Below are positions 17,282 through 63,031 of a DNA stretch of 64,000 nt, in pieces. The stretch spans positions 9,007 to 73,006 of the forward strand of contig JABMNZ010000025.1 of NCBI GenBank assembly GCA_013204395.1. Reading direction: 5' to 3'. The stretch's first letter is position 1, and each line of letters starts with the position of its first letter. Under the pieces are notes generated by a model. It made no database searches, had not been told where the DNA came from, and saw nothing but the letters and a program-made list of their open reading frames with translations. The translations under genes were made by a program, and so were the position numbers. The DNA is from Parcubacteria group bacterium (GTDB taxonomy: Bacteria; Patescibacteriota; Patescibacteriia; UBA9934; GWF2-40-263).

Positions 17282-17340
17282 TTGACAAAATCTATTAAAT
17301 AGGGTACTTTTTGTCGTTCGCTCAACCAGAAAGGAGGTCC
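17282..17340 (+). promoter_or_regulatory. candidate sigma-70 promoter plus strong SD for the ABC exporter
   Basis: TTGACA (17282-17287), 17-nt spacer, TACTTT; AAAGGAGG sits 5 nt before the TTG start at 17343. Confidence 0.4.
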
Positions 17341-17342
17341 AT

Positions 17343-19145
17343 TTGAACTTCTGGAAGCGATATTGGGCTCTCACGAGTCCGTTCAAGCGTGACATTGGTT
17401 GGTCCATCGGTTGGATCGCTGTGGCAACGTTGATGAGCCTTGCGGCTCCCTACGTCAACAAGTTGGTCTTTGACTTGGTCAACATCTGGTGCATGCCTCA
17501 GACGGGATCCCATGTCGGGGTCATCGAAACTCTGAGCGGGTGGATGCCCAGCGCGAACACCATGTGGTGGCTCGCCGGCACAATCATCCTGATCAAGGTT
17601 GTTGTCGAAGGTCTTTCAAGCACGGTGGGAATGCTCAACCAGCGCAGCTGGCTCAAGCTCATCCTGCTCATGAACGAGCGCATGCCCGTTTTGACCATGA
17701 GTCACTTGCTCAAGCTTTCCATGGGTCACCACATCCGTGAGAGTACGAGCAAGCAGATCACCAAGCTAGAGCGCGGTATCAACGCCGCGAGCCAGCTCAC
17801 GGATCGTCTCTTCGGAAGACTCCTGCCCGAACTCCTCGTCATTCCAGTCTTTTCAGTGGTCCTCTTGGTCCTTGATTGGCGTGTTGGGGTGCTAAGCCTA
17901 GTGCTGGGGGTGGTGAGTGGAATTTGGTCGGTGTACGATTTCCGGTCACTAACCCCACATCGCAAGAGGATGGAGACGCTCTACCAACAATCGAGCACCA
18001 TCGGCTACGAAGCCATCAGCAACATCGCGACCGTTCAAGCATTCGGTTGCGAGCAGCACGAACGTGGAAGGATCAAGGGCATCCTCGCGAATATTCGTGC
18101 GGTCGAATGGGCTCAACTGGCACGTGCCATGTTCGGTGGGTACCTACGAGACGGGATGTCCAACATCTCCGGTGCTGCCGTCATCTTGATTGGTCTCTGG
18201 GGACTTCAGTCCAATGCCATGTCATTGGGAACGATGGTGATGCTACTTCAACTCAACGGTCGGTTTATCCGTTCGTGTCGCACTGTGACGCGGGAATGGA
18301 TGGAGATGGGGCGGAATCAGGAGTCGCTCTCACACCTCATGGACCTGCTGGACAAGCAGCCTGACGTTGTATCGCTTCCAACAGCGGTTGACGTAGGTTC
18401 GTCGGTTGGAGATATCGAGTTTGAACAGGTGGTCTTCTCCTACGACGGCAAAGGTCCTGCAGTACAAGACGTCAGTTTCCTGGCCAAGGCTGGGGAGATG
18501 GTGGCGATTGTCGGTCCGTCAGGATCTGGTAAGTCCACTCTGATCTCGCTTCTGCTGCGCGCCTACGACGTGGAATCGGGTGCAATCAGGATCGGGCGAC
18601 AGGATCTCCGTGTACTGAGCCTGGACAGCTGGCGCTCCAAGGTGGGCATTGTTCCACAGAGCGTGGAGCTGTTCTCCATCTCTATTGCTGCCAACATTGC
18701 CTACGGGCGACAAGGCGCAACGGATGAGGAGATCATGGCGGCAGCCAAGCTTGCTGGAGCTCATGAGTTCATCTTGGCCAAGCCAGACGGCTACGACACC
18801 ATCGTTGGTGAAAGGGGCCTGGATCTTTCCGGTGGCGAGCGCCAACGGATCGGGATCGCACGCGCGATCCTCCGGGATCCACAGGTTCTGATCTTCGACG
18901 AGGCAACTAGCAGCTTGGACGTCATTTCCGAGGCTCACATCCAGGAAGCACTGGAAACGCTCCGCAAGGACCGAACGACCATCGTGGTCGCTCACCGGTT
19001 CTCAACGATCAAGAAGGCTGACCGCATCGTGGTCATGGACGGCGGCCGAATCGTTGCCCAAGGAACGCGCGAGGAACTGCTCGAAGGCAGCCCGCTCTTC
19101 ACCGAGTTGGCACGCCTGCAAAGCGAACTCGCAATCCGCGACTGA
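17343..19145 (+). CDS. ABC transporter, fused permease/ATP-binding exporter (MsbA/ABCB-type)
   Basis: 600 aa with six TM helices, then Walker A GPSGSGKST, signature LSGGERQR and Walker B LIFDEATS. TTG start with a perfect SD. GC content is visibly higher than the flanking DNA. Confidence 0.8.
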   Translation: MNFWKRYWALTSPFKRDIGWSIGWIAVATLMSLAAPYVNKLVFDLVNIWCMPQTGSHVGVIETLSGWMPSANTMWWLAGTIILIKVVVEGLSSTVGMLNQRSWLKLILLMNERMPVLTMSHLLKLSMGHHIRESTSKQITKLERGINAASQLTDRLFGRLLPELLVIPVFSVVLLVLDWRVGVLSLVLGVVSGIWSVYDFRSLTPHRKRMETLYQQSSTIGYEAISNIATVQAFGCEQHERGRIKGILANIRAVEWAQLARAMFGGYLRDGMSNISGAAVILIGLWGLQSNAMSLGTMVMLLQLNGRFIRSCRTVTREWMEMGRNQESLSHLMDLLDKQPDVVSLPTAVDVGSSVGDIEFEQVVFSYDGKGPAVQDVSFLAKAGEMVAIVGPSGSGKSTLISLLLRAYDVESGAIRIGRQDLRVLSLDSWRSKVGIVPQSVELFSISIAANIAYGRQGATDEEIMAAAKLAGAHEFILAKPDGYDTIVGERGLDLSGGERQRIGIARAILRDPQVLIFDEATSSLDVISEAHIQEALETLRKDRTTIVVAHRFSTIKKADRIVVMDGGRIVAQGTREELLEGSPLFTELARLQSELAIRD

Positions 19146-19191
19146 CCGAGCCTGTGCTCGGTCGAGGGACTCCACGAGTCCCTCTTTTTTG
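19146..19191 (+). terminator. twin hairpin terminator after the ABC exporter
   Basis: CCGAGC-CTGT-GCTCGG followed by GAGGGACTC-CAC-GAGTCCCTC, then TTTTTT. Confidence 0.6.
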
Positions 19192-19197
19192 TTGCCC

Positions 19198-19219
19198 GTC
19201 GGAAGCTAAGCTTCCGGCC
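19198..19219. repeat. palindrome element GTCGGAAGCTAAGCTTCCGGCC (copy 2 of 3)
   Basis: This 22-mer is identical to 57285-57306. It sits immediately 3' of a terminator at the right border of a GC-rich insert. Confidence 0.8.
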
Positions 19220-19332
19220 TGTATAGAAAAAAACGACCCTATGGTCAAAAACCATGCATTGAATGCAACAATCGATACTAAGTTTAGTTATGAATCATGC
19301 ATTCAATGTGCGATATATTGTTTGTCTGACAA

Positions 19333-19358
19333 ATAAAAAAACGACCCGTATGGTCGTG
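19333..19358 (-). terminator. minus-strand terminator for the 19386..19778 gene
   Basis: The reverse complement reads CGACC-CATACG-GGTCG followed by TTTTTTT. A near-duplicate motif AAAACGACCCTATGGTC occurs at about 19228. Confidence 0.5.
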
Positions 19359-19385
19359 GTGGTTGGGGGGCGAGTTGGTGGAGAG

Positions 19386-19778
19386 CTAGGAGAAGAAGCC
19401 TCGAGTGAGCGAGATCACTCGGTCGCGACGTTCGGAGTTCAGTGCCATTGCAGCGACGATGGCGGTCTGGCCATCGAGCTCATGCAGGCCTTCGGGCACA
19501 GTCGGCGTCACAGGCTCGGCGCTCTCGATGACGATGCGGGTGTACGAGCAGATGCCGCCATCGATCATCTTGAAAGGCAGGATGTGAGCGCAGCGCGTGC
19601 GCAGGGAGATTTCTCCGATCACGGGAACGCTGTCGGTCATGCCGGTGCCCAAGGCAGCCAGCACGATCATGGCTTCGGCGAGCGCCTCGGGGGAGTCGAA
19701 GGTGACTTGGTGGTTCTCAATCACCTGACTGAGCTCACCTCTTTGAAAGACCAGGATCTTGAAAGCGAGTGTGAACAT
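19386..19778 (-). CDS. Roadblock/LC7 (MglB-like) domain small protein
   Basis: 130 aa; the pattern ...EALAEAMIVLAALGTGMTDSVPVIGEISL... resembles robl/LC7 proteins. GGAGA SD. GC-rich. The overlapping plus-strand ORF 19263..19844 looks like antisense noise. Confidence 0.45.
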   Translation of the reverse strand: MFTLAFKILVFQRGELSQVIENHQVTFDSPEALAEAMIVLAALGTGMTDSVPVIGEISLRTRCAHILPFKMIDGGICSYTRIVIESAEPVTPTVPEGLHELDGQTAIVAAMALNSERRDRVISLTRGFFS

Positions 19779-20120
19779 GGTGGGTCTCCACGGTTGGTGT
19801 TCGGCAAGAGTAGATCACAATTGCCGCGGTGGGTCAATATTTAAGTGGAAATATGGCCGACGAGTTTATCCACATTCTTAGTCTACTGGGAGTCTGTATA
19901 ACTAACACAGCGCATAGCCGTAGGGCGTTAAGTGAAATAATAATACATTCCTTCCGTCACTATCGTGGTGGTTGGAAATCAAGATGATTTCCCTTTGCTA
20001 TTTCTAAACTAAAAACCCCTTCTTCTGAACATCACCTTTTTGATGTGCAAAAGAAGGGGTGGGGCGCAGCTTGTGGCTGCGCCCCGACGATTCGTTATCC
20101 CGCCGAAGCAGGATGTATCA

Positions 20121-20532: not shown

Positions 20533-22674
20533 CTAATATTCAAATATGTATTCAAACATATAGACTTGGCCGTCTTCGCCTACGGCGCGCCAGTCGTCTG
20601 CGGTGTTCTTGGCTGTTTCTATAATGCGTGGCGCTTGCCACCAATAGTTGTTTACAAGGAAATAGAGTCGCTTAACATCACCGTGTTGTGGTACTAGATC
20701 AAGGGCTTGTTGCGCAGTTTCTCGCGTGGGGGATTCGTTCATGGCGAGGAACACCTCGTAGAGAGGGCCGCCAGTTGGGATTGGGTAGAAGAACAAGTCT
20801 CCGAAGTAGTTGAAGCCGATTTCAGAAATCGCCGCCGCGCTAACAGACTGGTTGGCAAGCGTTAGGTATGGTTTACCCCCTGAGAGGGTATCTACCATGT
20901 GTACTGCATCGATGTCTGATTGGGAGACGTTAAAGCCACGGTTATTTTCATACGCGTCGCGCCTTGGGTAGGCCATGTAGAAGCTTGAGCTTGCAACGGC
21001 AACAAGGAGTACGAGAGCGCCAGCGCGTAGAACAACCGGCTGAGTTTTGATGTTTACGAAAAGATGTCCCAAGGCCAGGATCACATACGGCACAAGAAAG
21101 AATCCTATGAGTGGGAGCAGGCGAGTTGCGTAGTTTGATCGCTCGTAGTCGATGAGGAAGGTGAACTCGATGGCCCCTGACAAGATGAAGTAGTTAATCG
21201 AAAGGGCCATGACCATTAGGGAGATGGCACGGAATCGGCGAGAAAGTTCTTTGCGATATTCAAACCAGGCAAAGATCGCCAGGATGCCAAGGACCACCAT
21301 GGTGTTGAGGCCATAGAGGTACACGAGGTCCAGGAGAGGATCAAAACGATTTTCAAAAAAGACGGTGAGGTTTAGCTGGGAAAACCATTGCAGTGGATTG
21401 AGGGCGGCTAGGTCTATACCAAGCGACTGTCCACTGATGAGCGCGTTGATAACAAAACTCAGTGGTAGGACAATGCTGGCAAAAGCAATAAGTAGGATTC
21501 GTACCAGACGATTGGTTGTAGGGGTGCGAGGGTTTGTGCGCGACGGGTCTGTAGATAAGAACATGAAGTACAGAAGCGCCGGAATTCCTGCGATCGGATG
21601 GATGAGTGCTGTGGCCATCGCCCCTATGGCTAGTACGCGCAGGCGTGGGTGCTCATGCTCAAGCAGGTACGGAACAGACGCGAGGATGAGCAAGAGAGTC
21701 CAGAGGTTTGCGAGGCCCTGGGGGGTGGTTACGATGAAGTTTGAAAGTGGAACAAGGAATAGTCCTGTGAGGGTCAACATTGCCACGGACTTCTTTCTAA
21801 CAATATGTGCTGCAGCAAAGTACCAGGCCATTGGAAGTAGAAGGGCCGTAAGGATCGGCACAAGGAAGGTGTCCGCCAGATCAACAGGAATGGAAAATCC
21901 GTGGTGGGCAAACAAGACAAGCGCGTACTGCCCGATGTAGTAGAACGGTTTAGGAGTGATCGTTCCAAACTCTGCCAGGTGCATTTCTGTTGCCTTGTGA
22001 ATGAACGAGTCAAAACCGAACCCGATTGGAAAGGCAATGGCCGCTACACTTACGGCGGCAAAAAGAAGGGTAGAAAGTAGTACTAGCGATAGGGATCGCT
22101 CCTTTCCTCTCCAGAGCATGGCAAAGATTAAGGCCGTGGCCAAGAAGAACAATAAGAACAGTCCGCCTGGCAATCTTTCCCACACAGAACGTACGGCGTC
22201 AGTTACAAGAGACTCAGAGAGGGTAGAAAAAAACAGTGTAAGAAGAAGGAGTGTAGCTGCAGCCACGATCCACACGGCTCCTGGGACATGATGCTTTTTT
22301 TCTTTCCAAAGATTGTGGGCGTTAGAAAAAAGAGAGTGGTGTTTGGTTTTGCGTGCGGCCACCAATAGTACTGGTGGAGTGAGAAGAATGGTTACGTGAA
22401 TGATCGTCGGGGTGATGGCCCAGATGTAGTAGCTTGCGGTGATGATGATCAGCACAAAGCTCAGGAGAATCCAGATTCCAAGCCACCACCGGAGCACGGC
22501 TTTTTCATTTTGAGTTACAACCCCACCAAGCTCCCATCCAAATACCCCTAAATACATGATAAGAAGCAAGACACCAAAAAACACGCTTCCCACGAGGAAC
22601 GTGTTGATGACAAAAAGTGCTAGAAACAGCACTGCAATGATGGTAGCATGGAGTCTGTGGAACATAATCTCCAC
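20533..22674 (-). CDS. polytopic membrane protein, putative GT-C-type glycosyltransferase (ArnT/PMT/DUF2298-like)
   Basis: 713 aa with at least 12 predicted TM helices and a ~150-aa C-terminal soluble domain. It sits in a glycosylation locus. The family assignment is inferred. Confidence 0.5.
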   Translation of the reverse strand: MEIMFHRLHATIIAVLFLALFVINTFLVGSVFFGVLLLIMYLGVFGWELGGVVTQNEKAVLRWWLGIWILLSFVLIIITASYYIWAITPTIIHVTILLTPPVLLVAARKTKHHSLFSNAHNLWKEKKHHVPGAVWIVAAATLLLLTLFFSTLSESLVTDAVRSVWERLPGGLFLLFFLATALIFAMLWRGKERSLSLVLLSTLLFAAVSVAAIAFPIGFGFDSFIHKATEMHLAEFGTITPKPFYYIGQYALVLFAHHGFSIPVDLADTFLVPILTALLLPMAWYFAAAHIVRKKSVAMLTLTGLFLVPLSNFIVTTPQGLANLWTLLLILASVPYLLEHEHPRLRVLAIGAMATALIHPIAGIPALLYFMFLSTDPSRTNPRTPTTNRLVRILLIAFASIVLPLSFVINALISGQSLGIDLAALNPLQWFSQLNLTVFFENRFDPLLDLVYLYGLNTMVVLGILAIFAWFEYRKELSRRFRAISLMVMALSINYFILSGAIEFTFLIDYERSNYATRLLPLIGFFLVPYVILALGHLFVNIKTQPVVLRAGALVLLVAVASSSFYMAYPRRDAYENNRGFNVSQSDIDAVHMVDTLSGGKPYLTLANQSVSAAAISEIGFNYFGDLFFYPIPTGGPLYEVFLAMNESPTRETAQQALDLVPQHGDVKRLYFLVNNYWWQAPRIIETAKNTADDWRAVGEDGQVYMFEYIFEY

Positions 22675-30079: not shown

Positions 30080-30101
30080 TTTCAAATATCTCAAACGAAA
30101 C

Positions 30102-30119
30102 ATACGACGGCCGTCGCAT
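30102..30119. repeat. 16-bp-class perfect palindrome ACGACGGCCGTCG(T/C) element, copy 1 of 3
   Basis: ATACGACGGCCGTCGCAT followed by AAAGCGTTTTTTT. Copies 2 (30673-30690) and 3 (54025-54044) share a ~30-bp consensus ACGACGGCCGTCGYATRAAnnGTTTkTT. Confidence 0.8.
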
Positions 30120-30140
30120 AAAGCGTTTTTTTAGAAACAT

Positions 30141-30692: not shown

Positions 30693-30763
30693 ATCGTTTG
30701 TTGGAAATTTGTGATTTTATTTGGACATGTTGGCAATTAGAGATTTCTGTAGTTGAGTTAATG

Positions 30764-30842
30764 ATTGACAAAGAGGTGTCGCGCTGCTAAGTTCTTTCTC
30801 TCTGTCATCCGGCAGGGGTTTGCTAAGGAGTCTCATAATAAG
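30764..30842 (+). promoter_or_regulatory. conserved cassette promoter/leader A
   Basis: GATTGACAA...GCTGCTAAGTT...CTCTGTCATCCGGCAGGGGTTTGC, then AAGGAG and ATG 30843. Near-identical to leader B, with an 18-nt exact block. Confidence 0.55.
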
Positions 30843-31577: not shown

Positions 31578-31588
31578 AGCGAGTCTGT

Positions 31589-48738: not shown

Positions 48739-48784
48739 ACCCAACCTGTGTCTAGTGTCGTGAAAATGTGTGGATAACCACCTC

Positions 48785-48839: not shown

Positions 48840-48986
48840 TGGCAGTGGGGAAGAGGATCTTTAGATGGTGCAGACCCTTCCAGGAGAATATATGATCCCA
48901 ACGTTGGATCGTATTTTTATCTGCCAAGTATCAGCCAAACATTTCTTTCAAAAACTCGCCTAATCAACCTAAGTTCCTCGCTTGTT

Positions 48987-52245: not shown

Positions 52246-53931
52246 ATGAAAAGATTTTATTTACTCCTACTTCTTACCCTTCTCATTATCCCAGGGGTGA
52301 TCTATGCCTTTAATCAAGATCTGACTGAGCGGCTACATGGGTACATCTTGCTCCAGGTCGATCAGCATGGGGAAGCATGGTATGTGCGGGACACGGATGA
52401 CAAACGCTATTACATGGCCAATGGGGATGCGGCGTACTCAATGATGCGTTTCTTTTCTTTGGGGATTACAGACGCTGACCTGGCAACGATTCCTTCTGTT
52501 TCTGATACCACAGAGATGTTGGCATCTGCGTCGGCATGTGATTATAACTCCCTCGCTAACAGTCTCAAGGGAAAAATATTGCTTCAGGTCGAGCAACATG
52601 GGGAGGCGTGGTACATCTATCCGGATCGATGTCGGATGATTTACATGGAAGACGGAGCTGCGGCTTACACCATCATGCGCTTTTTGGGACTTGGAATTGC
52701 GGATAATGATCTTGCACAAATAGAGATGGGAAAAGTGGATGGCTATACCGAGGTTCAATACGATGATTCGACATCGATAGACCCCAATGAGACGAGTGAG
52801 TCCACGGCCGTATCATGGCCATCAGATATAGGAACGTCACATTTTGGTCGGCTGACAGAATTTGGACGGATTGACTCACAGCTTGAGGGGGGATGGGTGC
52901 GCCCACACTCAGGACCGTTTGTTTGGGATTGGATTGAGGGTACTCAGGGCACCTACCAATGGGATCAGGCCGATGAGGTCGTTGCTAGTCTTCAGGGGGA
53001 TCGTCAGGCCATTCTTGCTACGATCTGGGGATTTGCAAACTGGGATCAGGAGCAATGCCATGACAGCAGCGACGATACAAACAATGGATTCATTCGCACC
53101 ATGGATTGGATGCATGCACCGTGTGATGAGAGTGCTTATCTCGCTTGGTTAAGTGATGTGGTTGAGCGCTATGATGGTGATGGGGTCGATGACATGCCGG
53201 GACTTGAATACCCCGTCAGGCATTGGGAGATTTTTAATGAGCCGTCAATGCAAGATGGCACCGTCTTCTTTCAGGATGATGCTCAGACCTATGCTGAACT
53301 TCTGGCCGTTTCGTATGAAGCGATTTTAGCCGCTGATTCAAATGCCATCGTCCTTCCGGCGGGGCAAGCTGGAATGCATGCAAGTTCAGTAGCTTATTGG
53401 GATAACGTCCTTGGCGAGATTAGTGGCGTATTTGATATCGGAAACATTCATTCAATTTCATCGAGTAATGTTTTTTGGAGCGATGACTATCGAGACTATC
53501 TGGACGATTTTGGGTATGCAGATACCGATTTCTGGGTCACCGAAGCACTTGTTGGCGATTTTTCACAGAATCTTTCAGATGATGACGCGGCACAACTGAC
53601 GTTTACAAGCTATGTCAACGCCTTTGCAAACGGAGCCTCTGTTATATTCAACGTTGGCGCTCACGATCCAACGGGTGGGCCTGGAGAAGCCTCTGAAGAG
53701 ACATTCGAGATGATGGCTGCCTTCATTGGTGCGTTTAGCCGTGTTGAACGCATGGACGATACGACCGTCCTTTTTCAGCTACCTGACGGAACAACTGTTT
53801 ACGCAATATGGGACGGAGCCTCGTTACCAAATGGAGTCACCGGGACAATGAGTGTCTTGGAGTATGACGGTGATAGCTATCAGGCAGAAGCCGATCACGT
53901 CACTAGCACCATTCCATTGTTTGTTTATTAG
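52246..53931 (+). CDS. secreted protein with two tandem ~60-aa N-terminal repeats and a GH-A-like (NEP motif) catalytic domain
   Basis: Signal peptide MKRFYLLLLLTLLIIPGVIYA. Repeats LHGYILLQVDQHGEAWYVRDTDDKRYYMANGDAAYSMMRFFSLGITDADLA and LKGKILLQVEQHGEAWYIYPDRCRMIYMEDGAAAYTIMRFLGLGIADNDLA. HWEIFNEPS motif. Confidence 0.5.
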   Translation: MKRFYLLLLLTLLIIPGVIYAFNQDLTERLHGYILLQVDQHGEAWYVRDTDDKRYYMANGDAAYSMMRFFSLGITDADLATIPSVSDTTEMLASASACDYNSLANSLKGKILLQVEQHGEAWYIYPDRCRMIYMEDGAAAYTIMRFLGLGIADNDLAQIEMGKVDGYTEVQYDDSTSIDPNETSESTAVSWPSDIGTSHFGRLTEFGRIDSQLEGGWVRPHSGPFVWDWIEGTQGTYQWDQADEVVASLQGDRQAILATIWGFANWDQEQCHDSSDDTNNGFIRTMDWMHAPCDESAYLAWLSDVVERYDGDGVDDMPGLEYPVRHWEIFNEPSMQDGTVFFQDDAQTYAELLAVSYEAILAADSNAIVLPAGQAGMHASSVAYWDNVLGEISGVFDIGNIHSISSSNVFWSDDYRDYLDDFGYADTDFWVTEALVGDFSQNLSDDDAAQLTFTSYVNAFANGASVIFNVGAHDPTGGPGEASEETFEMMAAFIGAFSRVERMDDTTVLFQLPDGTTVYAIWDGASLPNGVTGTMSVLEYDGDSYQAEADHVTSTIPLFVY

Positions 53932-53981: not shown

Positions 53982-54024
53982 ATGGTGACATGGTGTGATT
54001 ATGAGCAAATCAGTCCCGACGGAA

Positions 54025-54044
54025 ATACCGACGGCCGTCGTATA
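54025..54044. repeat. palindrome element ATACCGACGGCCGTCGTATA, copy 3 (1-nt insertion relative to TACGACGGCCGTCGTA)
   Basis: It shares the extended consensus with 30102 and 30673 and is preceded by a partial direct repeat CCGACGGAAATACCGACGG. Confidence 0.7.
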
Positions 54045-54093
54045 AATGGTTTTAGATCTTTCTCAATCAGACAACCATTTAAATGATCCATGT

Positions 54094-54121
54094 AAAGAAA
54101 AAAGACCCCTGCGTTGGGGTC
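54094..54121 (-). terminator. minus-strand terminator for 54132..54554
   Basis: The reverse complement reads GACCCC-AACGCA-GGGGTC followed by TTTTTTC. Confidence 0.5.
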
Positions 54122-54131
54122 GGTCGTGGGG

Positions 54132-54554
54132 TCAGGGGGTGTCGGACTTGAGCGGTGGGAGGTTCAGCGGTTCGCCGATCCAAACGATCTGGTCGCGAAC
54201 ACGTTGCCTCACGTGGTCGTTGAACGCGATTTCCTCGCTGTAGATGAGGAGGCCTCCGGTGTGTTGAATCCGGAGTCCGCGCTCTGTCAGGATGCACACG
54301 GCGGGGATCCCACCGGAGACACATGGGCGGACGTTCTCTCTCCAGGAGATGACGGCCGGAGTGACGGCCCTCTTGCAGTTTCCCGCGCCCCAGATGTCGG
54401 CGTAGGCTTCACTGCAGATCTGCTCGACGATCATGTCGATCTCAGCTTGCTCTTCCTTGTCAGGGTTGAAGATCCATGACACTCCCCCAACAAGCAGAAA
54501 AAGCATCCAGCCGATGAGTCCGGCAACCCAGAAGTATCTCAATGGATTCATTGT
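54132..54554 (-). CDS. hypothetical membrane-anchored Cys-containing protein (GC-rich islet)
   Basis: ATG 54552-54554 (MNPLRYFWVAGLIGWMLFLLVGG...) with GGGAGA 10 nt upstream. 140 aa. The track ORF extends further to 54692. Confidence 0.5.
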   Translation of the reverse strand, partial: TMNPLRYFWVAGLIGWMLFLLVGGVSWIFNPDKEEQAEIDMIVEQICSEAYADIWGAGNCKRAVTPAVISWRENVRPCVSGGIPAVCILTERGLRIQHTGGLLIYSEEIAFNDHVRQRVRDQIVWIGEPLNLPPLKSDTP

Positions 54555-54742
54555 GTTGGTCTCCCAGTGGTTACGCCACGAACCGTTCGTTGTGGGACTA
54601 CTTGAGTAGTAGCTTTCTAGGCTTACCCAGCCGTAAGGGGGTCTTGGCTTGCAAGAACGAGTTAATCTAGCCATATTTTCGTTCTTTGTCAACCCAAAGA
54701 GATCATAGGGTTGGTTATACTTTCTGATATACTACTTTCCAT

Positions 54743-56553: not shown

Positions 56554-56581
56554 TTGACAACTATTTATTCTCACGTATGAT
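56554..56581 (+). promoter_or_regulatory. strong sigma-70-like promoter at left border of GC-rich island
   Basis: TTGACA (56554-59), 16-nt spacer, TATGAT (56576-81). Two terminator-like hairpins follow (about 56627-56660 and 56672-56704) before the GNAT ATG at 56724. Confidence 0.45.
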
Positions 56582-56723: not shown

Positions 56724-57233
56724 ATGCCGACGATTCACACACATCCCTCATCTGTCCCGGATCACGTCTGGGACATCATCTCTGTGGCCACCACAGCAGA
56801 GCCAAAGATCGATTCCACCCGCAACACCCCTGAGAACCTCAAGGGTCTCTACCAGCGCCACCTTGCTGTGGTGCTCATGGCAGAAGGGGAGCCGGTCGGA
56901 TTCATCGCGGCCTGGCCGGTGGAAGATGGTTTCGCGGAGATCGGCTCCATCTGGATTCGCAGTGATCATCGTGGCAGGGGACTCAGTCACAAGCTATACG
57001 ATGCCGTGGCAGGTCTCAGAGGAATCAAAGAACTGGTGGCCTTCGGGGTCACAACCAACCCTATTTCCGTTCACGTCGGAAAGCGCGTAGGGCTGACGAT
57101 CGTCGATGACTGGAGCCGCCCGGTTCCCATGCATCTGACCTGCGGGCCTTGCGAGCTCATCGCACTCGCTGATCAGGCTACGTGTCCAAAACGAGGGACA
57201 TCATGTTGGCTTAGGGTCATGAAGCCTAAGTAA
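56724..57233 (+). CDS. GNAT family N-acetyltransferase
   Basis: AGGAGA SD then ATG 56724. IWIRSDHRGRGLSHKLYDAV (R/QxxGxG/A acetyl-CoA motif). GC-rich. The track ORF begins at 56664. Confidence 0.65.
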   Translation: MPTIHTHPSSVPDHVWDIISVATTAEPKIDSTRNTPENLKGLYQRHLAVVLMAEGEPVGFIAAWPVEDGFAEIGSIWIRSDHRGRGLSHKLYDAVAGLRGIKELVAFGVTTNPISVHVGKRVGLTIVDDWSRPVPMHLTCGPCELIALADQATCPKRGTSCWLRVMKPK

Positions 57234-57245: not shown

Positions 57246-57280
57246 CCTGCCAGGACATACGGTCACGGCAGGTTTTTCTT
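57246..57280 (+). terminator. terminator after GNAT gene
   Basis: CCTGCC-(15 nt)-GGCAGG followed by TTTTTCTT. Confidence 0.55.
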
Positions 57281-57284
57281 ATCT

Positions 57285-57306
57285 GTCGGAAGCTAAGCTT
57301 CCGGCC
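57285..57306. repeat. palindrome element GTCGGAAGCTAAGCTTCCGGCC (copy 3 of 3)
   Basis: Identical 22-mer to 19198-19219, again directly after a terminator. Confidence 0.8.
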
Positions 57307-57395
57307 CGTGGGGGTTTTCTTAGCCTTTCTCGTTCCAGTGCAGGTTGTTTATGTAGGTATTTAAAAACCCCGATGTCGTATCGGGGGGGGGTGGA

Positions 57396-58220
57396 TCAGA
57401 GTTCCGGGTAGCGGTCCTCGATCCGGCGCACTAGTCGTTCGAACTCGGGCAGTCGGTGGTTGTCTGGTCTCCAGGCGATGGAGTCCATCAGGTTGATCTC
57501 CTCTACGATCCTTGCGCCATCTTGCGGAACGCCATCGACGAAGTCGCGACCCATGAGCCATACCGTGTCTGCGATGCGCAGAGCAGACCGGATGTCATGG
57601 GAGATCACAACGATGGTTCGGTGCTCGTCCATGTTGGTCGTTTCGACGAGAAGGTCACACACAGCCGTCTTAGCCAGGGTGTCGAGCCCGGAGAACGGTT
57701 CGTCCATCATGATCAGCTTGTCACCGTTGATGACCTGCTGAGCGATCGCCAGTCTTTGACGTTGGCCACCAGAGAGCTGAATGGGGTACTTGTCGATCTC
57801 TCGGGCGATTCCGAACCGCTCGAGGAGCTCCATGATTCGACTCTTGTAGTCGGTGGCAGAGATCTCGGGATTGTTCCGTGCCGATACCAACATGTTGCCC
57901 ATCACCGTGCGGTGAACGAGCAGCATGTAGTTCTGGTACACCACCCCCACTGATCCTGCGACCACTGGGACAAGCGGTGAGCCAGCCCTCACGATGCCCT
58001 CATTGGGCCTTTCCAGTCCGGCAAGGGCCCTGAACAACGTGGTCTTTCCACAACCCGATGGGCCGAGAATTGCCACGATCTGTCCTTGGGTCATGCCAGG
58101 TCGGATCACGTCATGAACTTGTACGGACAAACCCTTGAGGATGGTTCTGTCTCCGAAGGACTTGGTCACACCAACGGCTTCCAACAGCAGGTCGCCCCTT
58201 GAGTGTTCGTAGTCTCCCAT
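57396..58220 (-). CDS. ABC transporter ATP-binding protein (NitT/TauT nitrate/sulfonate/bicarbonate family)
   Basis: Walker A GPSGCGKTT, signature LSGGQRQR, Walker B LIMMDEPFS. GC-rich. Confidence 0.8.
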   Translation of the reverse strand: MGDYEHSRGDLLLEAVGVTKSFGDRTILKGLSVQVHDVIRPGMTQGQIVAILGPSGCGKTTLFRALAGLERPNEGIVRAGSPLVPVVAGSVGVVYQNYMLLVHRTVMGNMLVSARNNPEISATDYKSRIMELLERFGIAREIDKYPIQLSGGQRQRLAIAQQVINGDKLIMMDEPFSGLDTLAKTAVCDLLVETTNMDEHRTIVVISHDIRSALRIADTVWLMGRDFVDGVPQDGARIVEEINLMDSIAWRPDNHRLPEFERLVRRIEDRYPEL

Positions 58221-58221
58221 C

Positions 58222-58998
58222 TCAGTGTCCTCCTAGTGCGGTGTGCGGAGCGCAGACGCGCTTGGCCAGGCCCAACAGGTAGTCGATGCCGATGCCCATG
58301 ACAAGCACAAGCAGCATGATGGCCGTCTGGACGCCAGGGTCGGTGTACTTCTTGGCGTCGTACATGATGACTCCCAGGCCTCCTGAGCGTGAGATGACCT
58401 CCACACCAGCGAGCATGGCAAAGCCGATGGCGTTGTTCTGCCGCATGGCCTCCAGCGCATCTGCGAAGGTGCCAAAGACGACAATCTCTTTGACGATCTC
58501 CCACTCGCTCATCCTGAGCGTGCGGGCGTAGTCATATTTGCTCTGGGGAATCGCCATGACCACGGCAACCATGGAGGTCGTGAAGAAGACCGTGATGGCG
58601 AAGGTGAGCAGGGAGAGCTTTACACCGTCTCCGCTCACGAACATCTGCCTGGCGATGAACGAAAGTCCAGCGATCGACAGAAAGCGCATCAGGGTGACCC
58701 CCCTGACCAATGGCTGAACAAAGCCGAGGCTCCGTGCGTAGCTCAGGAGCAGGGAGATCACCGTTGCCAGGCCTAGGGCCATGGTGGTCAGCTTCAAGCT
58801 TTCCATGATGTCCAGGTAGAAGCTCTGTTTGCCCATAAGCCCCATGAGGGCGGAGAGCGTGTCAGAGACACCCGGAACGGTTGGGGAGCGCCACAGCTCC
58901 CACGTCAGGATGAAGACGGCGATCCAGATGATGGACCACAGCCAGAAACCAGCGGGAGACAAGGGTTGGTTTGGTGTAAACCATGCCTTGGGGTTCAT
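58222..58998 (-). CDS. ABC transporter permease (binding-protein-dependent inner membrane component)
   Basis: 258 aa, 6 TM. Adjacent to and 1 bp from the ATPase gene. Confidence 0.7.
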   Translation of the reverse strand: MNPKAWFTPNQPLSPAGFWLWSIIWIAVFILTWELWRSPTVPGVSDTLSALMGLMGKQSFYLDIMESLKLTTMALGLATVISLLLSYARSLGFVQPLVRGVTLMRFLSIAGLSFIARQMFVSGDGVKLSLLTFAITVFFTTSMVAVVMAIPQSKYDYARTLRMSEWEIVKEIVVFGTFADALEAMRQNNAIGFAMLAGVEVISRSGGLGVIMYDAKKYTDPGVQTAIMLLVLVMGIGIDYLLGLAKRVCAPHTALGGH

Positions 58999-59146
58999 TG
59001 CGCGCCCTCCTTAGACTGACTACATTTTGTCGTCAGCTTGAAATCATTGACTTGAGCAGCCGGGAAATACCAGCCGCTTAAGAAAATGCCCGACATCCAC
59101 ATCTGCAAGAGATGCTTAGTCGGGCAGCGTTGTCGTGCTCTACGTC

Positions 59147-59803
59147 CTAGAGCGTGATCACCCTCACTTCCACGCGACGGTTGGTCGCGCGACCCTGGGG
59201 AGTCCCGTTGGACTCCAGGGGGTTGTCCTCCCCGTGGGGGTGGACCGTGATCCGGTCCTTGGGGAAGGTCGCCGGGGCGATCTCCTGCAGGTAGACCTTG
59301 ACCGCGAAGGCGCGATCTTCGGACAGGACCAAGTTGGTCTCAGCTTCTCCCTGGCTGTCGGTGTAGCCGTGGATCTCTACCCGTGTGCTCTCGGCCATGA
59401 CCAGCAGGGTTGCCAGCTCGTCCAGGTCGCCGGCGGCGCTGGTGTTGAACTGTGCCGAACCGCTCTTGAAGCTGATCTGCCAGCTCCGCGATCCGATCAC
59501 CTGACCGGGGGCGCTGGAGGCCTTGGCGAAGTCCGGAGCGGCGATGCCACCACCCTCGACGCCTTCCAACTTGGAGGCGGCCAGGAGGTACTCACCGTTG
59601 AACACGTCGTCGAACGCGGGATAGGACGAGATGTCCTCGGGCCAGAGATCGACGGCGAGGTCGCCGTAGTACTCGTAGGAGCGCTTGAAGGGGTTGCCCG
59701 CCGATGGGTCAACTCCGTAGAACTGGAGTGCCTCGTCCATGGTGAAGGCCTGGCTTCCGCCGAGTCTCACGCGAACGGTGCGGGTCTTGTCCCACTCCTC
59801 CAT
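59147..59803 (-). CDS. OmpA/MotB-like C-terminal domain protein, in-frame continuation of upstream ORF across a single TAA
   Basis: VEIHGYTDSQGEAETNLVLSEDRAFAVKVYL ... NRRVEVRV OmpA-like signature. The ATG is 3 nt after the TAA of 59807..60964, in the same frame. Confidence 0.55.
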   Translation of the reverse strand: MEEWDKTRTVRVRLGGSQAFTMDEALQFYGVDPSAGNPFKRSYEYYGDLAVDLWPEDISSYPAFDDVFNGEYLLAASKLEGVEGGGIAAPDFAKASSAPGQVIGSRSWQISFKSGSAQFNTSAAGDLDELATLLVMAESTRVEIHGYTDSQGEAETNLVLSEDRAFAVKVYLQEIAPATFPKDRITVHPHGEDNPLESNGTPQGRATNRRVEVRVITL

Positions 59804-59806
59804 GCC

Positions 59807-60964
59807 TTAGTAGTAGGCGGCCCAGTCCTTCGCGTCCATGACGGCCGTCTGGTAGATGGCGAAGGACGCTTCGCCGCTGTGGGTGAGGGCTTCGCGGCTG
59901 GAGCGGACCTCGAGGTTGCCCTCGAAACCACCTGCCAGCCAGTTCACCACCTCGCCCTTGTGGGCCTGGTTCCACTTGCGGATGCCGAAGATCGCGTTGG
60001 GCATCTGCCCACTGTTCTCTTTGGTGGAGAAGATCTTCGCCAGGCCACCCTTGAGACGGGTGACGTTCACGTCGCCGGGGGTCCATGTGCAGGTGCCTGC
60101 GATGCAAACATTCTGCGTGCGACCGGTGAGCTTGCCACCCTTGACCTCCTTGAGGTCGTCGCACTGGTCCTCGATGTAGGCCTTGTCGCCCTCGTCGAAG
60201 CTGCCGGTGTACAGGAAGTTCAGCGCGTCGGGATCCCAGGTGTTCCCGTTGGGATTCACTGGGATGTTGTTGAGTGCTGCCCAAGTGAGGGCCACGTTGA
60301 TGTCGCCGTCACCCTGCACCCCCGCGAAGCGCTTGCCTCGGCAGAAGTCCGGGTTGTTCACGCACTCGGGTGGACCCATGAAGGTGTCCTCGCCCAGCGA
60401 CCGTCCGAAACCGCCGATGATCTCGGCGCGATACTCCGGTCCCAGCTTGGCGAGCTCACGGTTGAGTCCGTCGACGTACCAGGCCGCCGCATCGCCCATC
60501 ATGGCGGTGTGCGTGTAGCCGGCCGTGCAGTTGTCCGAGTTTGTGCGCTGCATCTGCGTGGCACAGGCGATGAGACCGTCCTTCTGGTCTCCGTACATGT
60601 CCTGGCCTTCGATGCGGAGGTTGACCCCCCACTTCTCCATGATGGAGCCCTGCAAGGTGCGGGGTCCACCGTTGGCGTGGTTCACGCCGGCCATGGAGTT
60701 CCAGGGGATGACGCCCCAGTAGATCTCGGTCGAGGTCATGGCCGCCGGGCTGTTCCCGGGGATGGTCACTCCCTCGCTGCTCGCGCTGACGCGCTGGTTC
60801 TGGAAGCTGTTGTCCAGCTCGACGTTGCCGTCGATGGTCACCGACTCGGTGCTCTCGGGTGCGGCCATGCGGTAGAGGGTGAGTCCACCAGCGAACATTG
60901 CCGCCAGAACAGCCACTACGGCGAACAGTCCACCGACCGCGCCCTTGTTTACGGATGTGCCCAT
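59807..60964 (-). CDS. secreted protein (signal peptide; possible solute-binding-like domain), N-terminal part of a split secreted/OmpA-domain gene
   Basis: Signal anchor GAVGGLFAVVAVLAAMFAGG. 385 aa, Cys-rich. Placed in an operon with ABC permease and ATPase. The TAA at 59807-59809 is followed in-frame by 59147..59803. Confidence 0.5.
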   Translation of the reverse strand: MGTSVNKGAVGGLFAVVAVLAAMFAGGLTLYRMAAPESTESVTIDGNVELDNSFQNQRVSASSEGVTIPGNSPAAMTSTEIYWGVIPWNSMAGVNHANGGPRTLQGSIMEKWGVNLRIEGQDMYGDQKDGLIACATQMQRTNSDNCTAGYTHTAMMGDAAAWYVDGLNRELAKLGPEYRAEIIGGFGRSLGEDTFMGPPECVNNPDFCRGKRFAGVQGDGDINVALTWAALNNIPVNPNGNTWDPDALNFLYTGSFDEGDKAYIEDQCDDLKEVKGGKLTGRTQNVCIAGTCTWTPGDVNVTRLKGGLAKIFSTKENSGQMPNAIFGIRKWNQAHKGEVVNWLAGGFEGNLEVRSSREALTHSGEASFAIYQTAVMDAKDWAAYY

Positions 60965-60994
60965 GTAACTATCTCCTCGAATGCCCAGAACTTG

Positions 60995-62125
60995 CTAGGA
61001 CTTGTTGGTTCTTCTTGCGGCGAGTTCCCTGCGGATTCTCGCCCGGCGATCTTCATCCGATTCCCCGGATGTGGTGGGAGCAGATTCTGGCTCTGCTACG
61101 GAAAGCGCTCTAGCTCTCCTGCCAAGTCTGCTTGTCGCAGACGATGGGTGTTCACTGGGAAGCTCCATGGCTGCCAGTTCACGTGTTGCCCCGCTCCATT
61201 GCCGAAGCACTTGCTGGCTTCCAGCAACGTTTGCGATGTTCACACGAGCCAGAACGTCATGTCCTTCTGCAAGGCGAATCTCGATATCAGCGGCACGCAT
61301 CTCTGCGGCAGCTCGGAGTTCTGCGACGGCTTGTCGGACAGAAAGTTCTTGCTCGGAACGTTCTCCCAGCTCACCAAGGTGGCTGCCTAGTGCATCCTGC
61401 CTCAGGTCCGCGCTGCGGAGCTGTGCTTCCTGCAAGGAAAGCTCTTCTTTGATCCGCATGATGTCCAGCTCCAGCTGGTTGCTCATCGTTTGGAGCGAAT
61501 CTCTGAACTGCTTGATGCCGGCGGTGAGTTGGCCGAATTTTGCGGCTGTTTGTTCTTTGAGGCCAGCCTTCTGAATGAGGACTTCAGCTCGACGTCTGTC
61601 ACCAGAGTCATCCAGATCCAGGGCTTCAGCCTTGAAGGCTTCAGCCTCACGGCTGCTCGAGTCTTCTTCTCGCTGACAGTCAGCGATGAATCGATCGATT
61701 CCAACCTGAGCCAGGAGCATGCGCTGGTGCTGCTTTTCAAGCCGGTCGATGACGTCACGTGTCTTTTCAACCGGATCTTCTTGCTCCGCTTCTTCATGTT
61801 CCCAATCATCTTCGGAGACATCCTCGTCTTCGATCAGGAACGTTCGGTAGGCCTTGGTGAACAAGGCTAGATACGAGGTGTAGGCAAGTCCTGCCAGGCC
61901 ACGCGCAGTCCTGTTCATTGCGGCCAAACCTGCCAGCAAGCCTCCACCCAAGATGGCACCCGCTACGATGAGCGGACCAGCAGGGGTGAAGGCAGCAGCG
62001 GCAAGCAAGGGCAGAAGGAGCCAGGCCAGCATTACGAGCACAGGAGCAAGAAGAACGGCACCAGTCATCTTGGCCGCCTTCAACTCCTTGGGAGTCATCC
62101 GTAGGCGGTCGATGAGGTCGTTCAT
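60995..62125 (-). CDS. membrane-anchored coiled-coil protein
   Basis: Two N-terminal TM helices, then about 250 aa of Glu/Arg/Ala-rich heptad-like sequence. Confidence 0.5.
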   Translation of the reverse strand: MNDLIDRLRMTPKELKAAKMTGAVLLAPVLVMLAWLLLPLLAAAAFTPAGPLIVAGAILGGGLLAGLAAMNRTARGLAGLAYTSYLALFTKAYRTFLIEDEDVSEDDWEHEEAEQEDPVEKTRDVIDRLEKQHQRMLLAQVGIDRFIADCQREEDSSSREAEAFKAEALDLDDSGDRRRAEVLIQKAGLKEQTAAKFGQLTAGIKQFRDSLQTMSNQLELDIMRIKEELSLQEAQLRSADLRQDALGSHLGELGERSEQELSVRQAVAELRAAAEMRAADIEIRLAEGHDVLARVNIANVAGSQQVLRQWSGATRELAAMELPSEHPSSATSRLGRRARALSVAEPESAPTTSGESDEDRRARIRRELAARRTNKS

Positions 62126-62140
62126 TGGTACTTACTCCTC

Positions 62141-62854
62141 TTAGGGGTTGTTGCCCGGGGGCTCCTCGGGGGTGGCATCGGGGTGCTGACCACGGACGAA
62201 GGCATCGGCCGCCATGAGTCCAGCATCGCGCTGTGCGATGTGGGCCATGGAGGCTTCCACCGCTTGTCCGATGGCGGCGCGCCGCGACTGAGCCTCGGCT
62301 TCTTCGATTTGGGCTTCACGGCGCAGCTGAGCGATCTCCATCTCCATCACCTGGGCACGCGCCCGCTTGTCGAGAACACTCGCTTCCAGCTCACCGACCT
62401 GCTCCTCGATGGCGCCGTCACGTCCCGCTTCGACTTCTTGACGGATGTCGGCGCAGGCTTGCCTGGCTTCGGCGATGTCCCAGAGCACATGTCCGGGCGT
62501 GAATCCTTGAGTGGTCTGCATGGCACCGGCCACGATCATGGCACGTTGGCCAGAGTCGGGCAGGCCCGGAGCAAACTGAGCATCGAGTTGACGCCACAGC
62601 GAGAATGCCGGAGCTGCTGCTGCAGCGATCTCGTCGTCGACGAGCCTGATGATCTCTTCGGGATCCATCTGCACGATCTCCGCACCCAAGGGGGCAGGGG
62701 TCGTGACTGGCGGCATGGTCGGCGGGGCCAACTCGGCTTCGAGCTGATTCATGGCCGCGGCCAAGTCTTCTGCTGAGAGCTCGGGGGTGTCGCCACCTCC
62801 TTTGGTCTCAACCAACAGTCCGGTTTTCAAACCGAGGGTCTTGAAAAAGCTCAT
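62141..62854 (-). CDS. coiled-coil protein (PspA-like composition, unassigned)
   Basis: 237 aa, N-terminal amphipathic MSFFKTLGLKTGLL, long acidic/Ala-rich helices. Confidence 0.5.
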   Translation of the reverse strand: MSFFKTLGLKTGLLVETKGGGDTPELSAEDLAAAMNQLEAELAPPTMPPVTTPAPLGAEIVQMDPEEIIRLVDDEIAAAAAPAFSLWRQLDAQFAPGLPDSGQRAMIVAGAMQTTQGFTPGHVLWDIAEARQACADIRQEVEAGRDGAIEEQVGELEASVLDKRARAQVMEMEIAQLRREAQIEEAEAQSRRAAIGQAVEASMAHIAQRDAGLMAADAFVRGQHPDATPEEPPGNNP

Positions 62855-63031
62855 ATCTCCTCCATGGTCCGGTTAGGACCAGTTCAGTGTTGTGATTCAT
62901 GGTTTTGTGAAGGTGTTCAGTTGTGAAGAACGACGGGGATTTTTACGTTAAAATGCTGAAAATGTCAACGGGTATAAAGGTGTGGATGAATCATTCGCTG
63001 TAAGGCCGTAGATTTAGTACCCTTTTATCGT

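Follow-up and report, generated by a model that had tools for sequence, protein, structure and literature searches.

The question raised by this locus is why the lower-GC chromosome of a Parcubacteria group bacterium is interrupted by sharply bounded islets of GC-rich coding DNA, and whether those islets record gene transfer. The locus, here called the window, is the whole 64,000-nt stretch that was analysed (positions 9,007 to 73,006 of contig JABMNZ010000025.1), and the composition of islets and backbone was scored per 300-bp window and per gene. Atypical guanine-plus-cytosine (GC) content is routinely taken as a sign of recent horizontal gene transfer (HGT), and in epibionts of the candidate phyla radiation (CPR) such a reading readily suggests theft of host genes; the original prediction, made from the sequence of this stretch, had proposed repeated acquisition from a high-GC donor, with the islets as possible host-derived genes. 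Judged by its backbone, the source organism is a Candidatus Uhrbacteria (CPR) bacterium, which fits the epibiont-type organism that had been guessed. The mosaic itself is a conserved, lineage-wide property of an accessory gene set and not the record of a recent theft from a high-GC host.

The mean GC content is 0.478 for the window (median of the 300-bp windows, 0.467), and the profiles of GC and of GC at third codon positions (GC3) confirm six GC-rich segments on a lower-GC background at a GC cut-off of 0.53, with coordinates within about 100 bp of those first proposed (Table 1). GC3 averages 0.714±0.095 in 13 islet genes vs 0.423±0.046 in 41 backbone genes, with z-scores of 2.6-9.5 for the islet genes (Mann-Whitney p=4e-8). 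Base composition and codon usage of the islets are atypical for the genome (codon fractions correlate with those of the backbone at only r=0.20-0.35), and the contrast lies mainly at third codon positions, with GC3 > GC1 > GC2 in the islets, as in GC-rich coding DNA. Antisense open reading frames (ORFs) of at least 100 aa are enriched in the same segments, as had been noticed (14 per 10 kb vs 4.3 in the backbone); the plus-strand ORF 19263-19844 is one such artefact, and where a Roadblock/LC7 gene had been read the real gene is the minus-strand 130-aa ORF of islet 1b, which has no Pfam match. The intergenic spacers inside islets have a GC content of 0.39-0.55, vs 0.31-0.49 for backbone spacers; since they are not GC-rich, the enrichment is restricted to ORFs and switches on and off at ORF borders. 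As read from the sequence, each islet is self-contained as a transcription unit, bringing its own sigma-70-like promoter and intrinsic terminator. Hairpins were found beside the units at six sites (17253-17278, 19164-19184, 31642-31661, 32765-32784, 54104-54121 and 57368-57386), in agreement with the framing by terminators described at the outset, and terminators at islet borders are normal for transcription units.

The surroundings of the islets are collinear across species, positions 39740-52184 in about ten of them and 7.5-30 kb of the window in the genomes BH28 and L248. The ten best loci for the class II ribonucleotide reductase (RNR) are 76-85% identical at the amino acid level and all follow the gene order of Uhrbacteria. 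Three carry the label 'Gammaproteobacteria'; the other seven are assigned to Candidatus Uhrbacteria or Patescibacteria. Three records of 'uncultured Gammaproteobacteria' (L006, L009 and L013) have the Uhrbacteria-type order around RNR (60-78% amino acid identity), and their labels are probably taxonomic errors for CPR metagenome-assembled genomes (MAGs). Exact look-ups of HflX and of the 1243-aa protein matched no record. Within this conserved framework, most islet genes have positional orthologues. The ATP-binding cassette (ABC) exporter of islet 1, whose family is 56-75% identical within Uhrbacteria, lies in exactly the same gene order in BH28 (75% amino acid identity) and L248 (61%), on par with the identity of the flanking genes. 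A homologue of the first cassette protein of islet 3 (62-67% identity, GC3 0.60-0.74) occupies the same position in L248, and the islet-4 protein has a positional orthologue in BH28 (L003:419-889; 41% identity) with a GC3 of 0.94 vs 0.53 for the backbone. In BH28, L167 and SI072_bin28 the five-gene module that constitutes islet 6 is flanked by the same methyltransferase and GNAT genes; the product of its third gene, a solute-binding protein fused to an OmpA-like peptidoglycan anchor (SBP-OmpA), is 84%, 65% and 54% identical to that of the window, respectively. The GNAT gene has orthologues in five species, including L004 (65% identity), BH28, L167 and SI072, and is kept even in genomes without the module.

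These orthologues are GC3-rich relative to the genomes in which they reside. The exporter has a GC3 of 0.69 vs 0.41 for its own backbone in the window, 0.75 vs 0.53 in BH28 and 0.67 vs 0.51 in L248, and SBP-OmpA has 0.86 vs 0.41 in the window, 0.97 vs 0.53 in BH28, 0.65 vs 0.32 in L167 and 0.60 vs 0.47 in SI072. Expressed as logit offsets, the excess is almost equal gene by gene in the window and BH28 (exporter 1.16 and 0.97, GNAT 0.97 and 1.04, permease 1.72 and 1.75, ATPase 1.25 and 1.49). GNAT offsets are +0.97, +0.99, +1.04, +0.26 and +0.73 in the window, L004, BH28, L167 and SI072 (GC3 in L004 0.61 vs 0.37 for its own backbone), and even the conserved 713-aa protein beside the variable slot, with a GC3 of 0.69 in BH28 and 0.60 in L248, shows a mild excess throughout (+0.59, +0.67 and +0.37 in the window, BH28 and L248). 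The GC3 of orthologues is correlated between species among backbone genes alone (rho 0.56, 0.80 and 0.89), which places the islets at the upper end of a conserved continuum. The variable slots of L003, L009, L011 and L012 also contain GC3-rich genes, mostly orphans.

The age of this pattern can be gauged at four-fold degenerate sites, where backbone genes of the window and BH28 are identical at 0.28-0.43 of positions vs 0.23-0.28 expected at random. Despite this near saturation, GC at four-fold sites (GC4) is similar in the two species for the exporter (0.61 and 0.67) and high in both for SBP-OmpA (0.81 and 0.95). With synonymous sites so close to saturation and positional orthologues GC3-rich in all species examined, the excess does not look like a fading trace of a recent import, and recency of transfer cannot explain it. 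Under a simple relaxation model each lineage would retain about 0.3 of the initial excess; combined with the present GC4 excess of the module (0.40-0.46), this would call for an impossible starting value above 1.

The reading preferred here, held with about even confidence, is long residence of the islets together with an active force favouring G and C at synonymous sites, and an origin of the largest islet in the phage gene pool. According to this reading the islets would be discrete units for accessory envelope and transport proteins and orphans, set in a few variable slots of a collinear chromosome, and most would be old residents (the exporter, the first cassette gene, the islet-4 gene, GNAT and the five-gene module being syntenic across species). 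A gene-specific force at synonymous sites would hold the excess at a quasi-equilibrium; the most likely candidate would be synonymous-site selection linked to expression or mRNA stability, and the alternative would be GC-biased gene conversion in recombination-prone slots. Both the active maintenance of the excess and its cause we infer from these patterns. Ultimate origins would be mixed, the module having entered Uhrbacteria once from the huge-phage pool while the small slots continue to gain and lose orphans, so that some import may be ongoing. A bolder formulation, tentative and on balance doubtful, is that of a 'two-dialect' Uhrbacteria genome, in which a conserved accessory subset of envelope and transport genes, some of them derived from huge phages, would have been held for long at a GC3-rich, C-ending equilibrium (GC3 up to 0.97) over a backbone of 41-53% GC3.

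The codon pattern bears on the kind of force that would be involved and names no donor. The dominant change in the islets is from NNT to NNC codons (ATC 0.86, TAC 0.91, TTC 0.88), accompanied by AAA to AAG; GAA and GAG are nearly unchanged and GGG is reduced. AGA and AGG make up 23% of arginine codons and GGT and GGA 53% of glycine codons, compared with 2-18% and 12-44% in the GC-rich bacteria sampled, and the usage of AGR, GGT/GGA and CCC lies between that of the backbone and that of GC-rich bacteria. Codon fingerprints of the islets correlate with one another and with the GC-rich phage-like contig L085 at r=0.87-0.97 (r=0.95 for L085), and with unrelated GC-rich bacteria at a mean r=0.86; the islet fingerprint thus matches any GC-rich DNA and cannot name a donor. 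Across SBP-OmpA orthologues, GC at first and second codon positions is flat (0.52-0.54) over a GC3 range of 0.60-0.97; as a test of mutation or conversion pressure this has little power, as RNR shows. HU is a classic abundant protein, and in the gene for the HU-type DNA-binding protein of the window nine of the 11 two-fold pyrimidine codons end in C, vs a backbone rate of 0.37. No genes for ribosomal proteins, EF-Tu or chaperonins are present in the window or in the Uhrbacterial loci compared. Gene-specific synonymous bias as known elsewhere, whether from translational selection for C-ending codons, selection for GC-rich coding sequence or GC-biased gene conversion, resembles the islets in being confined to ORFs and synonymous sites, in favouring NNC over NNT, in the correlated GC3 of orthologues and in the NNC preference shared by the HU gene. 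The islets differ in that a GC3 of 0.41 set against 0.86-0.97 goes far beyond the range usual within a genome, and in that the lineage is CPR and the genes concerned are accessory genes and orphans instead of the classical highly expressed core. No report of GC-rich islets in CPR bacteria was found in the literature searched.

Several points weigh against this reading. Translational selection is expected to be weak in CPR bacteria, and the HU proxy is only a single 93-codon gene whose GC3 reaches only 0.55. At four-fold sites the shift from T to C (1.50) is barely above that from A to G (1.12; confidence interval of the difference 0.03-0.76, marginal), so codon selection and strand-symmetric conversion are inseparable. 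In the module, synonymous sites of the window and BH28 agree more often than they do in backbone genes (excess identity 0.19-0.35 against about 0.1), which could reflect constraint or a younger, introgressed copy, although even with these less-scrambled sites neutral decay does not fit. The module of SI072_bin28 is almost flat (offset +0.54 or less), so any GC-favouring force is not universal. Since different GC-rich orphans occupy the same slot in different species, there must be a supply of GC-rich genes; those of islets 1b and 2 (130 and 69 aa), which lack orthologues, and the islet-5 gene, which has one, could be recent arrivals. Finally, the saturation argument is a simple model and the species tree is that of one gene (RNR).

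Table 1. Compositional segments, genes and associated sequence elements of the window.
Feature	Position	Strand	Remarks
Islet 1 GC segment	17301-19900		GC 0.56
Islet 2 GC segment	19951-20400		GC 0.52
Islet 3 GC segment	30751-32800		GC 0.56-0.57
Islet 4 GC segment	40251-41050		GC 0.55
Islet 5 GC segment	54001-54650		GC 0.55
Islet 6 + GNAT GC segment	56601-62950		GC 0.596, 500-bp peaks 0.65
Bidirectional terminator hairpin	17253-17278	both	left border of islet 1, between glycosyltransferase gene (ends 17251, GC3 0.46) and exporter
Islet 1 ABC exporter, 600 aa	17343-19145	+	GC3 0.69; Pfam ABC_membrane + ABC_tran
Exporter terminator (19164-19184), then D6 palindrome	19164-19222	+	
Islet 1b orphan, 130 aa	19386-19778	-	GC3 0.77; own terminator 19357-19341
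Islet 2 protein, 69 aa	20121-20330	-	frame GC3 about 0.7; two predicted membrane helices, read from sequence
Conserved 713-aa protein	20533-22674	-	GC3 0.56; mild 'halo' beside variable slot
Islet 3 cassette 1	30765-31679	+	promoter-like TTGACA-17-TAAGTT 30765-30793; 26-nt leader 30798-30823
Cassette 1 ORF, 244 aa	30843-31577	+	GC3 0.70; then 62-nt terminator element 31618-31679
Islet 3 cassette 2	31703-32802	+	promoter-like TTGACA-17-TAATTT 31703-31731; same 26-nt leader 31737-31762
Cassette 2 orphan ORF, 298 aa	31807-32703	+	GC3 0.71; then same 62-nt terminator element 32741-32802
HU-type DNA-binding protein, 93 aa	37813-38094		PF00216 8e-23; in a stretch without ORF of at least 100 aa
Islet 4 protein, 162 aa	40379-40867	+	GC3 0.75; no family
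Islet 5 unit	54019-54692	-	promoter-like site 54692-54664; terminator 54121-54104; D3 palindrome 54019-54055
Islet 5 membrane orphan, 139 aa	54132-54551	-	GC3 0.74
GNAT acetyltransferase	56724-57233 (or from 56664)	+	GC3 0.65; Pfam; near-consensus promoter 56554-56581
D6 palindrome (57273-57309) and module terminator (57386-57368, minus strand)	57273-57386		
Module gene 5, ABC ATPase	57396-58220	-	GC3 0.71; Pfam ABC_tran (PF00005) 1.9e-26; phrog_293
Module gene 4, permease	58222-58998	-	GC3 0.80; weak BPD_transp_1 (PF00528) match, E 0.007, below family cut-off
Module gene 3, SBP-OmpA	59147-60964	-	GC3 0.86
Module gene 2, 376 aa	60995-62125	-	GC3 0.57; function unassigned; phage-ORF profile E 1.5e-5 (BH28 7e-9)
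Module gene 1, 237 aa	62141-62854	-	GC3 0.70; phage-ORF profile E 2e-13
Module promoter TTGACA-18-AAAAAT	62968-62939	-	

The largest islet is best described through the protein structure of SBP-OmpA. The AlphaFold model of the BH28 protein (pLDDT 86.8) shows an N-terminal membrane helix, a linker, a binding domain of TauA/NrtA fold and an OmpA-like domain. In Foldseek searches the binding domain matches TauA (6ssy, E 2e-8, TM 0.72) and NrtA (2g29, TM 0.63), and the C-terminal domain matches the domains of OmpA, Pal and TagL with TM values of 0.8-0.9; PF00691 is on record for homologues of the OmpA-like domain, and PDB profile matches reach 2.6e-28. A binding protein of TauA/NrtA fold together with a permease and an ATPase suggests an importer of the NitT/TauT type, and islet 6 is accordingly modelled as a TauA/NrtA-type ABC importer whose binding protein would be tethered to peptidoglycan. 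It shares with known NitT/TauT importers (TauABC, SsuABC and NrtABCD) the binding fold and the expected sizes of permease and ATPase, and an NMT1-like Pfam match occurs in a related Uhrbacterial islet; it departs from them in the fusion to an OmpA_C domain, in the membrane anchor and in the weak permease match. That related islet lies in the equivalent region of another Uhrbacterium (L011:13715-18226), is likewise GC-rich (GC3 0.73-0.83), and encodes a 635-aa NMT1-like binding protein, a VWA protein and a 618-aa protein with an OmpA domain; from its gene content it appears to be a second, analogous envelope or uptake module. Islet 6 was also considered as an anti-phage defence system and rejected, as PADLOC returns only generic matches of the MotB/ZorB-type OmpA domain and the ABC ATPase, with no ZorA and no other partner protein.

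In the window the SBP-OmpA gene, about 605 aa in relatives, is divided into two ORFs (59807-60964, 385 aa; 59147-59803, 218 aa) by an in-frame TAA at 59807-59809 on the minus strand, which replaces the lysine of a conserved YYKG motif. The same TAA is found in two other independent assemblies, and the BH28 gene is intact (GC3 0.97). An ATG follows two codons past the stop, and the downstream ORF lacks a Shine-Dalgarno site. The gene may be at an early stage of pseudogenisation, or it may still function in two parts. Four genomes carry the module, namely the window and those of three other species, and two lack it, L004 and a JGI contig, in which GNAT abuts the methyltransferase gene; the junction is always exactly the same. 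In a single-gene tree of RNR the module-bearing genomes are interspersed with the module-less L004, which makes loss of the module likely.

The distribution of the module extends into huge phages. The viral database IMG/VR contains 96 relatives, many on contigs of 150-580 kb with GC contents of 22-64%, and among the carrier loci examined (L086-L165 from IMG/VR, L085 and LR756500.1) binding protein, permease and ATPase occur together on about 75 of the 80 IMG/VR loci kept. A full-length binding-protein homologue is also present on LR756500.1, a 462-kb genome of an uncultured phage. Profiles built from the phage ORFs at the two upstream positions recognise the 376-aa and 237-aa proteins of the window, so the five-gene order is common to phages and Uhrbacteria; the cassette of two unknown proteins, binding protein, permease and ATPase is found, with its order kept, on about 80 huge-phage contigs, and the literature searched contained no description of it. 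ORFs flanking the carrier loci match 122 PHROG families, including ligases, NAD salvage enzymes, a polymerase, a clamp loader and an endolysin. In a neighbour-joining tree the Uhrbacterial SBP-OmpA proteins form one clade, (SI072,((P0003,L167),(BH28,window))), with the phage-like contig L085 (63% GC) as its sister, and viral (IMG/VR) sequences surround this group in the tree; the closest homologue outside Uhrbacteria is 50% identical. The GC3 of the module on 79 viral contigs follows that of the carrier (0.14-0.91, mean excess +0.05), which indicates that the module has no large intrinsic bias and that the large excess is specific to Uhrbacteria. Taken together, these sequence relationships suggest one ancient capture of the module from the huge-phage pool, probably followed by vertical descent with occasional loss. 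Phages are known to carry auxiliary metabolic genes (AMGs) for nutrient uptake, such as the phosphate-binding protein gene pstS of cyanophages. Like such AMGs and the 'ABC transporter' morons of PHROG (phrog_293), the genes of islet 6 are phage-borne binding-protein and ABC genes with cellular counterparts; unlike them, they form a complete, ordered five-gene cassette whose binding protein combines an N-terminal membrane helix with an OmpA-like peptidoglycan anchor at the C-terminus.

The alternative that survives best, though it is rather unlikely, is continuing flux: the slots would act as recombination hot spots into which a GC-rich mobile pool (L085-like huge phages or GC-richer Uhrbacteria) repeatedly delivers genes through crossovers in the conserved flanks, and the excess would be transient, seeming persistent since copies are replaced faster than they ameliorate. 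Such turnover would account for slot contents that vary between species and are often GC-rich orphans (e.g., where the window has islet 1b, BH28 has a pentapeptide-repeat gene and L248 a 126-aa orphan, each of them GC-rich). Some flux of this kind does exist, as the turnover of orphans in the small slots demonstrates. Against a uniformly GC-rich supply, variable genes of ordinary composition exist. The 561-aa protein encoded at 52246-53931 has no Pfam family, is missing from every relative examined (there, RNR leads straight into the next conserved gene or into other genes of the slot) and has a backbone-like GC3 of 0.47, so not all variable genes are GC-rich; one or more variable genes of backbone-like or lower GC also lie at 8626-10280 of L167. 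The presence of the module in some genomes and its absence from others at one exact junction would likewise be expected from flux, whereas the module tree mirrors the species relationships, with BH28 and the window as sisters and the Uhrbacterial copies monophyletic instead of nested among donors. The lower synonymous divergence of the module relative to the backbone also favours replacement, but the exporter matches its flanking genes in identity between species, each gene keeps its own offset, and the GC3 of orthologues is correlated even in backbone genes. The GC-rich sister of the Uhrbacterial module, with its codon usage so close to that of the islets, could represent the mobile pool, yet the fingerprint is generic for GC-rich DNA and no close donor copy was found, the nearest non-Uhrbacterial homologue being 50% identical. 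A mild GC3 halo in the genes adjoining the slots is in line with flux; the spacers, by contrast, are native-like.

The original prediction, taken to mean recent and repeated acquisition from a high-GC bacterial host of an epibiont, for example from Actinobacteria, is very improbable. In its favour are the sharp compositional shift at gene borders and the order GC3 > GC1 > GC2, and the organism does belong to CPR, a group with epibiotic members; however, the islets are older than speciation events after which synonymous sites have already become saturated, their spacers are native-like, and their arginine and glycine codon usage is unlike that of the GC-rich bacteria sampled. Beyond Uhrbacteria, the next matches of the exporter include a few actinobacterial names, but these are partial, 44-49% identical and restricted to the conserved ATPase half (a metagenome scan with the exporter alignment keyed on the generic Walker A/B motifs, and all that it recovered were ABC exporters of 30-40% identity, which is uninformative), and a few SBP-OmpA homologues are labelled Polyangiaceae. 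No islet protein has its best match in a high-GC bacterium: each belongs to a family restricted to Uhrbacteria or is an orphan, all close homologues, where there are any, are Uhrbacterial (56-84% identity) and syntenic, and searches of 5.8 and 1.8 billion proteins leave two islet proteins as orphans. The Actinobacteria-like best matches that had been anticipated are therefore absent, the only candidates being the partial exporter matches at about 45%, and best matches within the same lineage with conserved synteny were found for islets 1, 3, 4 and 6 and for GNAT; for islets 1, 3, 4 and 6 the host-derived reading is already contradicted. What stands of the proposed repeated acquisition is the existence of distinct self-contained units, the turnover of slots with GC-rich orphans and the 63%-GC phage-like outgroup of the largest islet; what is not supported is recent, repeated acquisition from a high-GC host. 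An assembly or binning chimera, in which GC-rich reads of another organism were joined into a low-GC contig, has next to no probability, for although the source is a MAG with sharp compositional junctions, independent Logan and JGI assemblies reproduce, with contigs from another sample, positions 7721-29145 (L250, 99.991%) and 57358-64000 (L001, 99.985%) at 99.98-99.99% identity, with the junctions of islets 1 and 2 and the right-hand junction of islet 6 thus recovered in two independent assemblies, and gene order including islets recurs in BH28, L248, L167 and SI072_bin28. A chimera is accordingly refuted by assembly for islets 1, 2 and 6, and by cross-species synteny for islets 1, 3, 4 and 6.

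Among the smaller islets, the 130-aa protein of islet 1b has no Pfam family, and neither it nor the 69-aa protein of islet 2 has a homologue in the relatives examined. For the islet-5 protein, a search of 5.8 billion proteins yields a single homologue (72% identity), located in the same slot directly after RNR on a JGI Uhrbacteria-like contig. Upstream of islet 1, the region 7494-11802 encodes tandem paralogous S8 peptidases with FG-GAP/VCBS-like repeats, the source of the 65-nt direct-repeat families D1, D2, D4 and D5; these genes are conserved in BH28 and L248, upstream of the glycosyltransferase cluster that ends in the GC-rich exporter.

Islet 3 consists of two cassettes with a common frame of a TTGACA-17-TAAKTT promoter-like site, a 26-nt leader CTCTCTGTCATCCGGCAGGGKTTTGC, an ORF and a 62-nt terminator element; the copies of the terminator element are 85% identical and the two ORFs are unrelated, so that the islet looks like a swap-in expression slot. 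The second cassette protein has only three distant relatives among 1.84 billion representatives. No further copy of the cassette elements occurs in the window and no exact copy in any relative locus compared; the cassette elements and both palindrome families, lacking exact copies in the compared loci, are thus genome-specific. An integron cassette array resembles islet 3 in its unrelated tandem ORFs bounded by the same conserved 5' and 3' elements. This identity was rejected: there is no attC, the 3' element being an ordinary hairpin with a T-run terminator, both cassettes come with a promoter-like site of their own, the copies number only two with none in relatives, and no integrase domain was found among the window proteins scanned with Pfam (part of the window genes). 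Of the palindromes said to lie at three islet borders, D3, a perfect 16-bp palindrome TACGACGGCCGTCGTA at 30095-30131, 30666-30702 and 54019-54055, does stand at the left borders of islets 3 and 5 (30666 and 54019), whereas D6 lies inside islets 1 and 6 and in the backbone. One pair of D3 copies brackets a low-GC gene (30141-30692) for a PaaX-like regulator with a Cas2-like domain (PF20803, 1.5e-17), and D3 could be an operator for this regulator or a terminator. D6, CGGAAGCTAAGCTTCCG, contains a HindIII site and has three copies just downstream of genes (7676-7712, 19186-19222 and 57273-57309); those in islets 1 and 6 sit between transcription units and the copy at 7676 is in the backbone, and D6 appears to be a REP-like element (repetitive extragenic palindrome) or a bidirectional terminator.

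Flexible genomic islets and hypervariable regions between conserved flanks have been described for populations of Prochlorococcus and SAR11, and the loci described here share with them small variable slots at fixed positions, a content of orphans and of envelope and transport genes, links to phages, and presence or absence at one junction. They differ in being richer in GC than the backbone, where islands and mobile DNA are usually richer in AT, in containing several genes that are positional orthologues across species and not strain-specific cargo, and in the lack of any integrase, tRNA or att repeats found. Of the features of a classical horizontally acquired island, the atypical composition is present, and mobility genes, tRNA insertion and direct repeats are not: Pfam detects no integrase or transposase domain in any islet protein, no direct repeats bracket islets in the window except for the cassette elements of islet 3, and scans of the window for tRNA, tmRNA and Rfam families gave no match, which means that the short islets are not known structured RNAs and that there are no tRNA integration sites. 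In the amelioration model of Lawrence and Ochman, acquired genes are said to converge on host composition, fastest at third codon positions. The sharp contrast, strongest at third positions, and the probable phage-pool origin of the largest islet agree with this model; the contrast has, however, not decayed across lineages that are near saturation, and the gene-specific offsets are conserved.

The islets are therefore a caution for composition-based HGT calls in CPR genomes, as they are syntenic and have remained GC-rich past synonymous saturation. The five-gene cassette shared by Uhrbacteria and about 80 huge-phage contigs suggests a reprogramming of nutrient uptake by phages and gene flow between huge phages and CPR bacteria. 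Active maintenance of the excess, if true, would imply a substantial force at synonymous sites in organisms thought to be poor in codon selection. Should the two-dialect reading hold, it would mean unexpectedly strong synonymous selection or biased conversion in an ultra-small CPR bacterium, and a complete ABC importer carried by phages, with its binding protein tethered to peptidoglycan, would then connect the accessory genome of CPR bacteria with the gene pool of huge phages.

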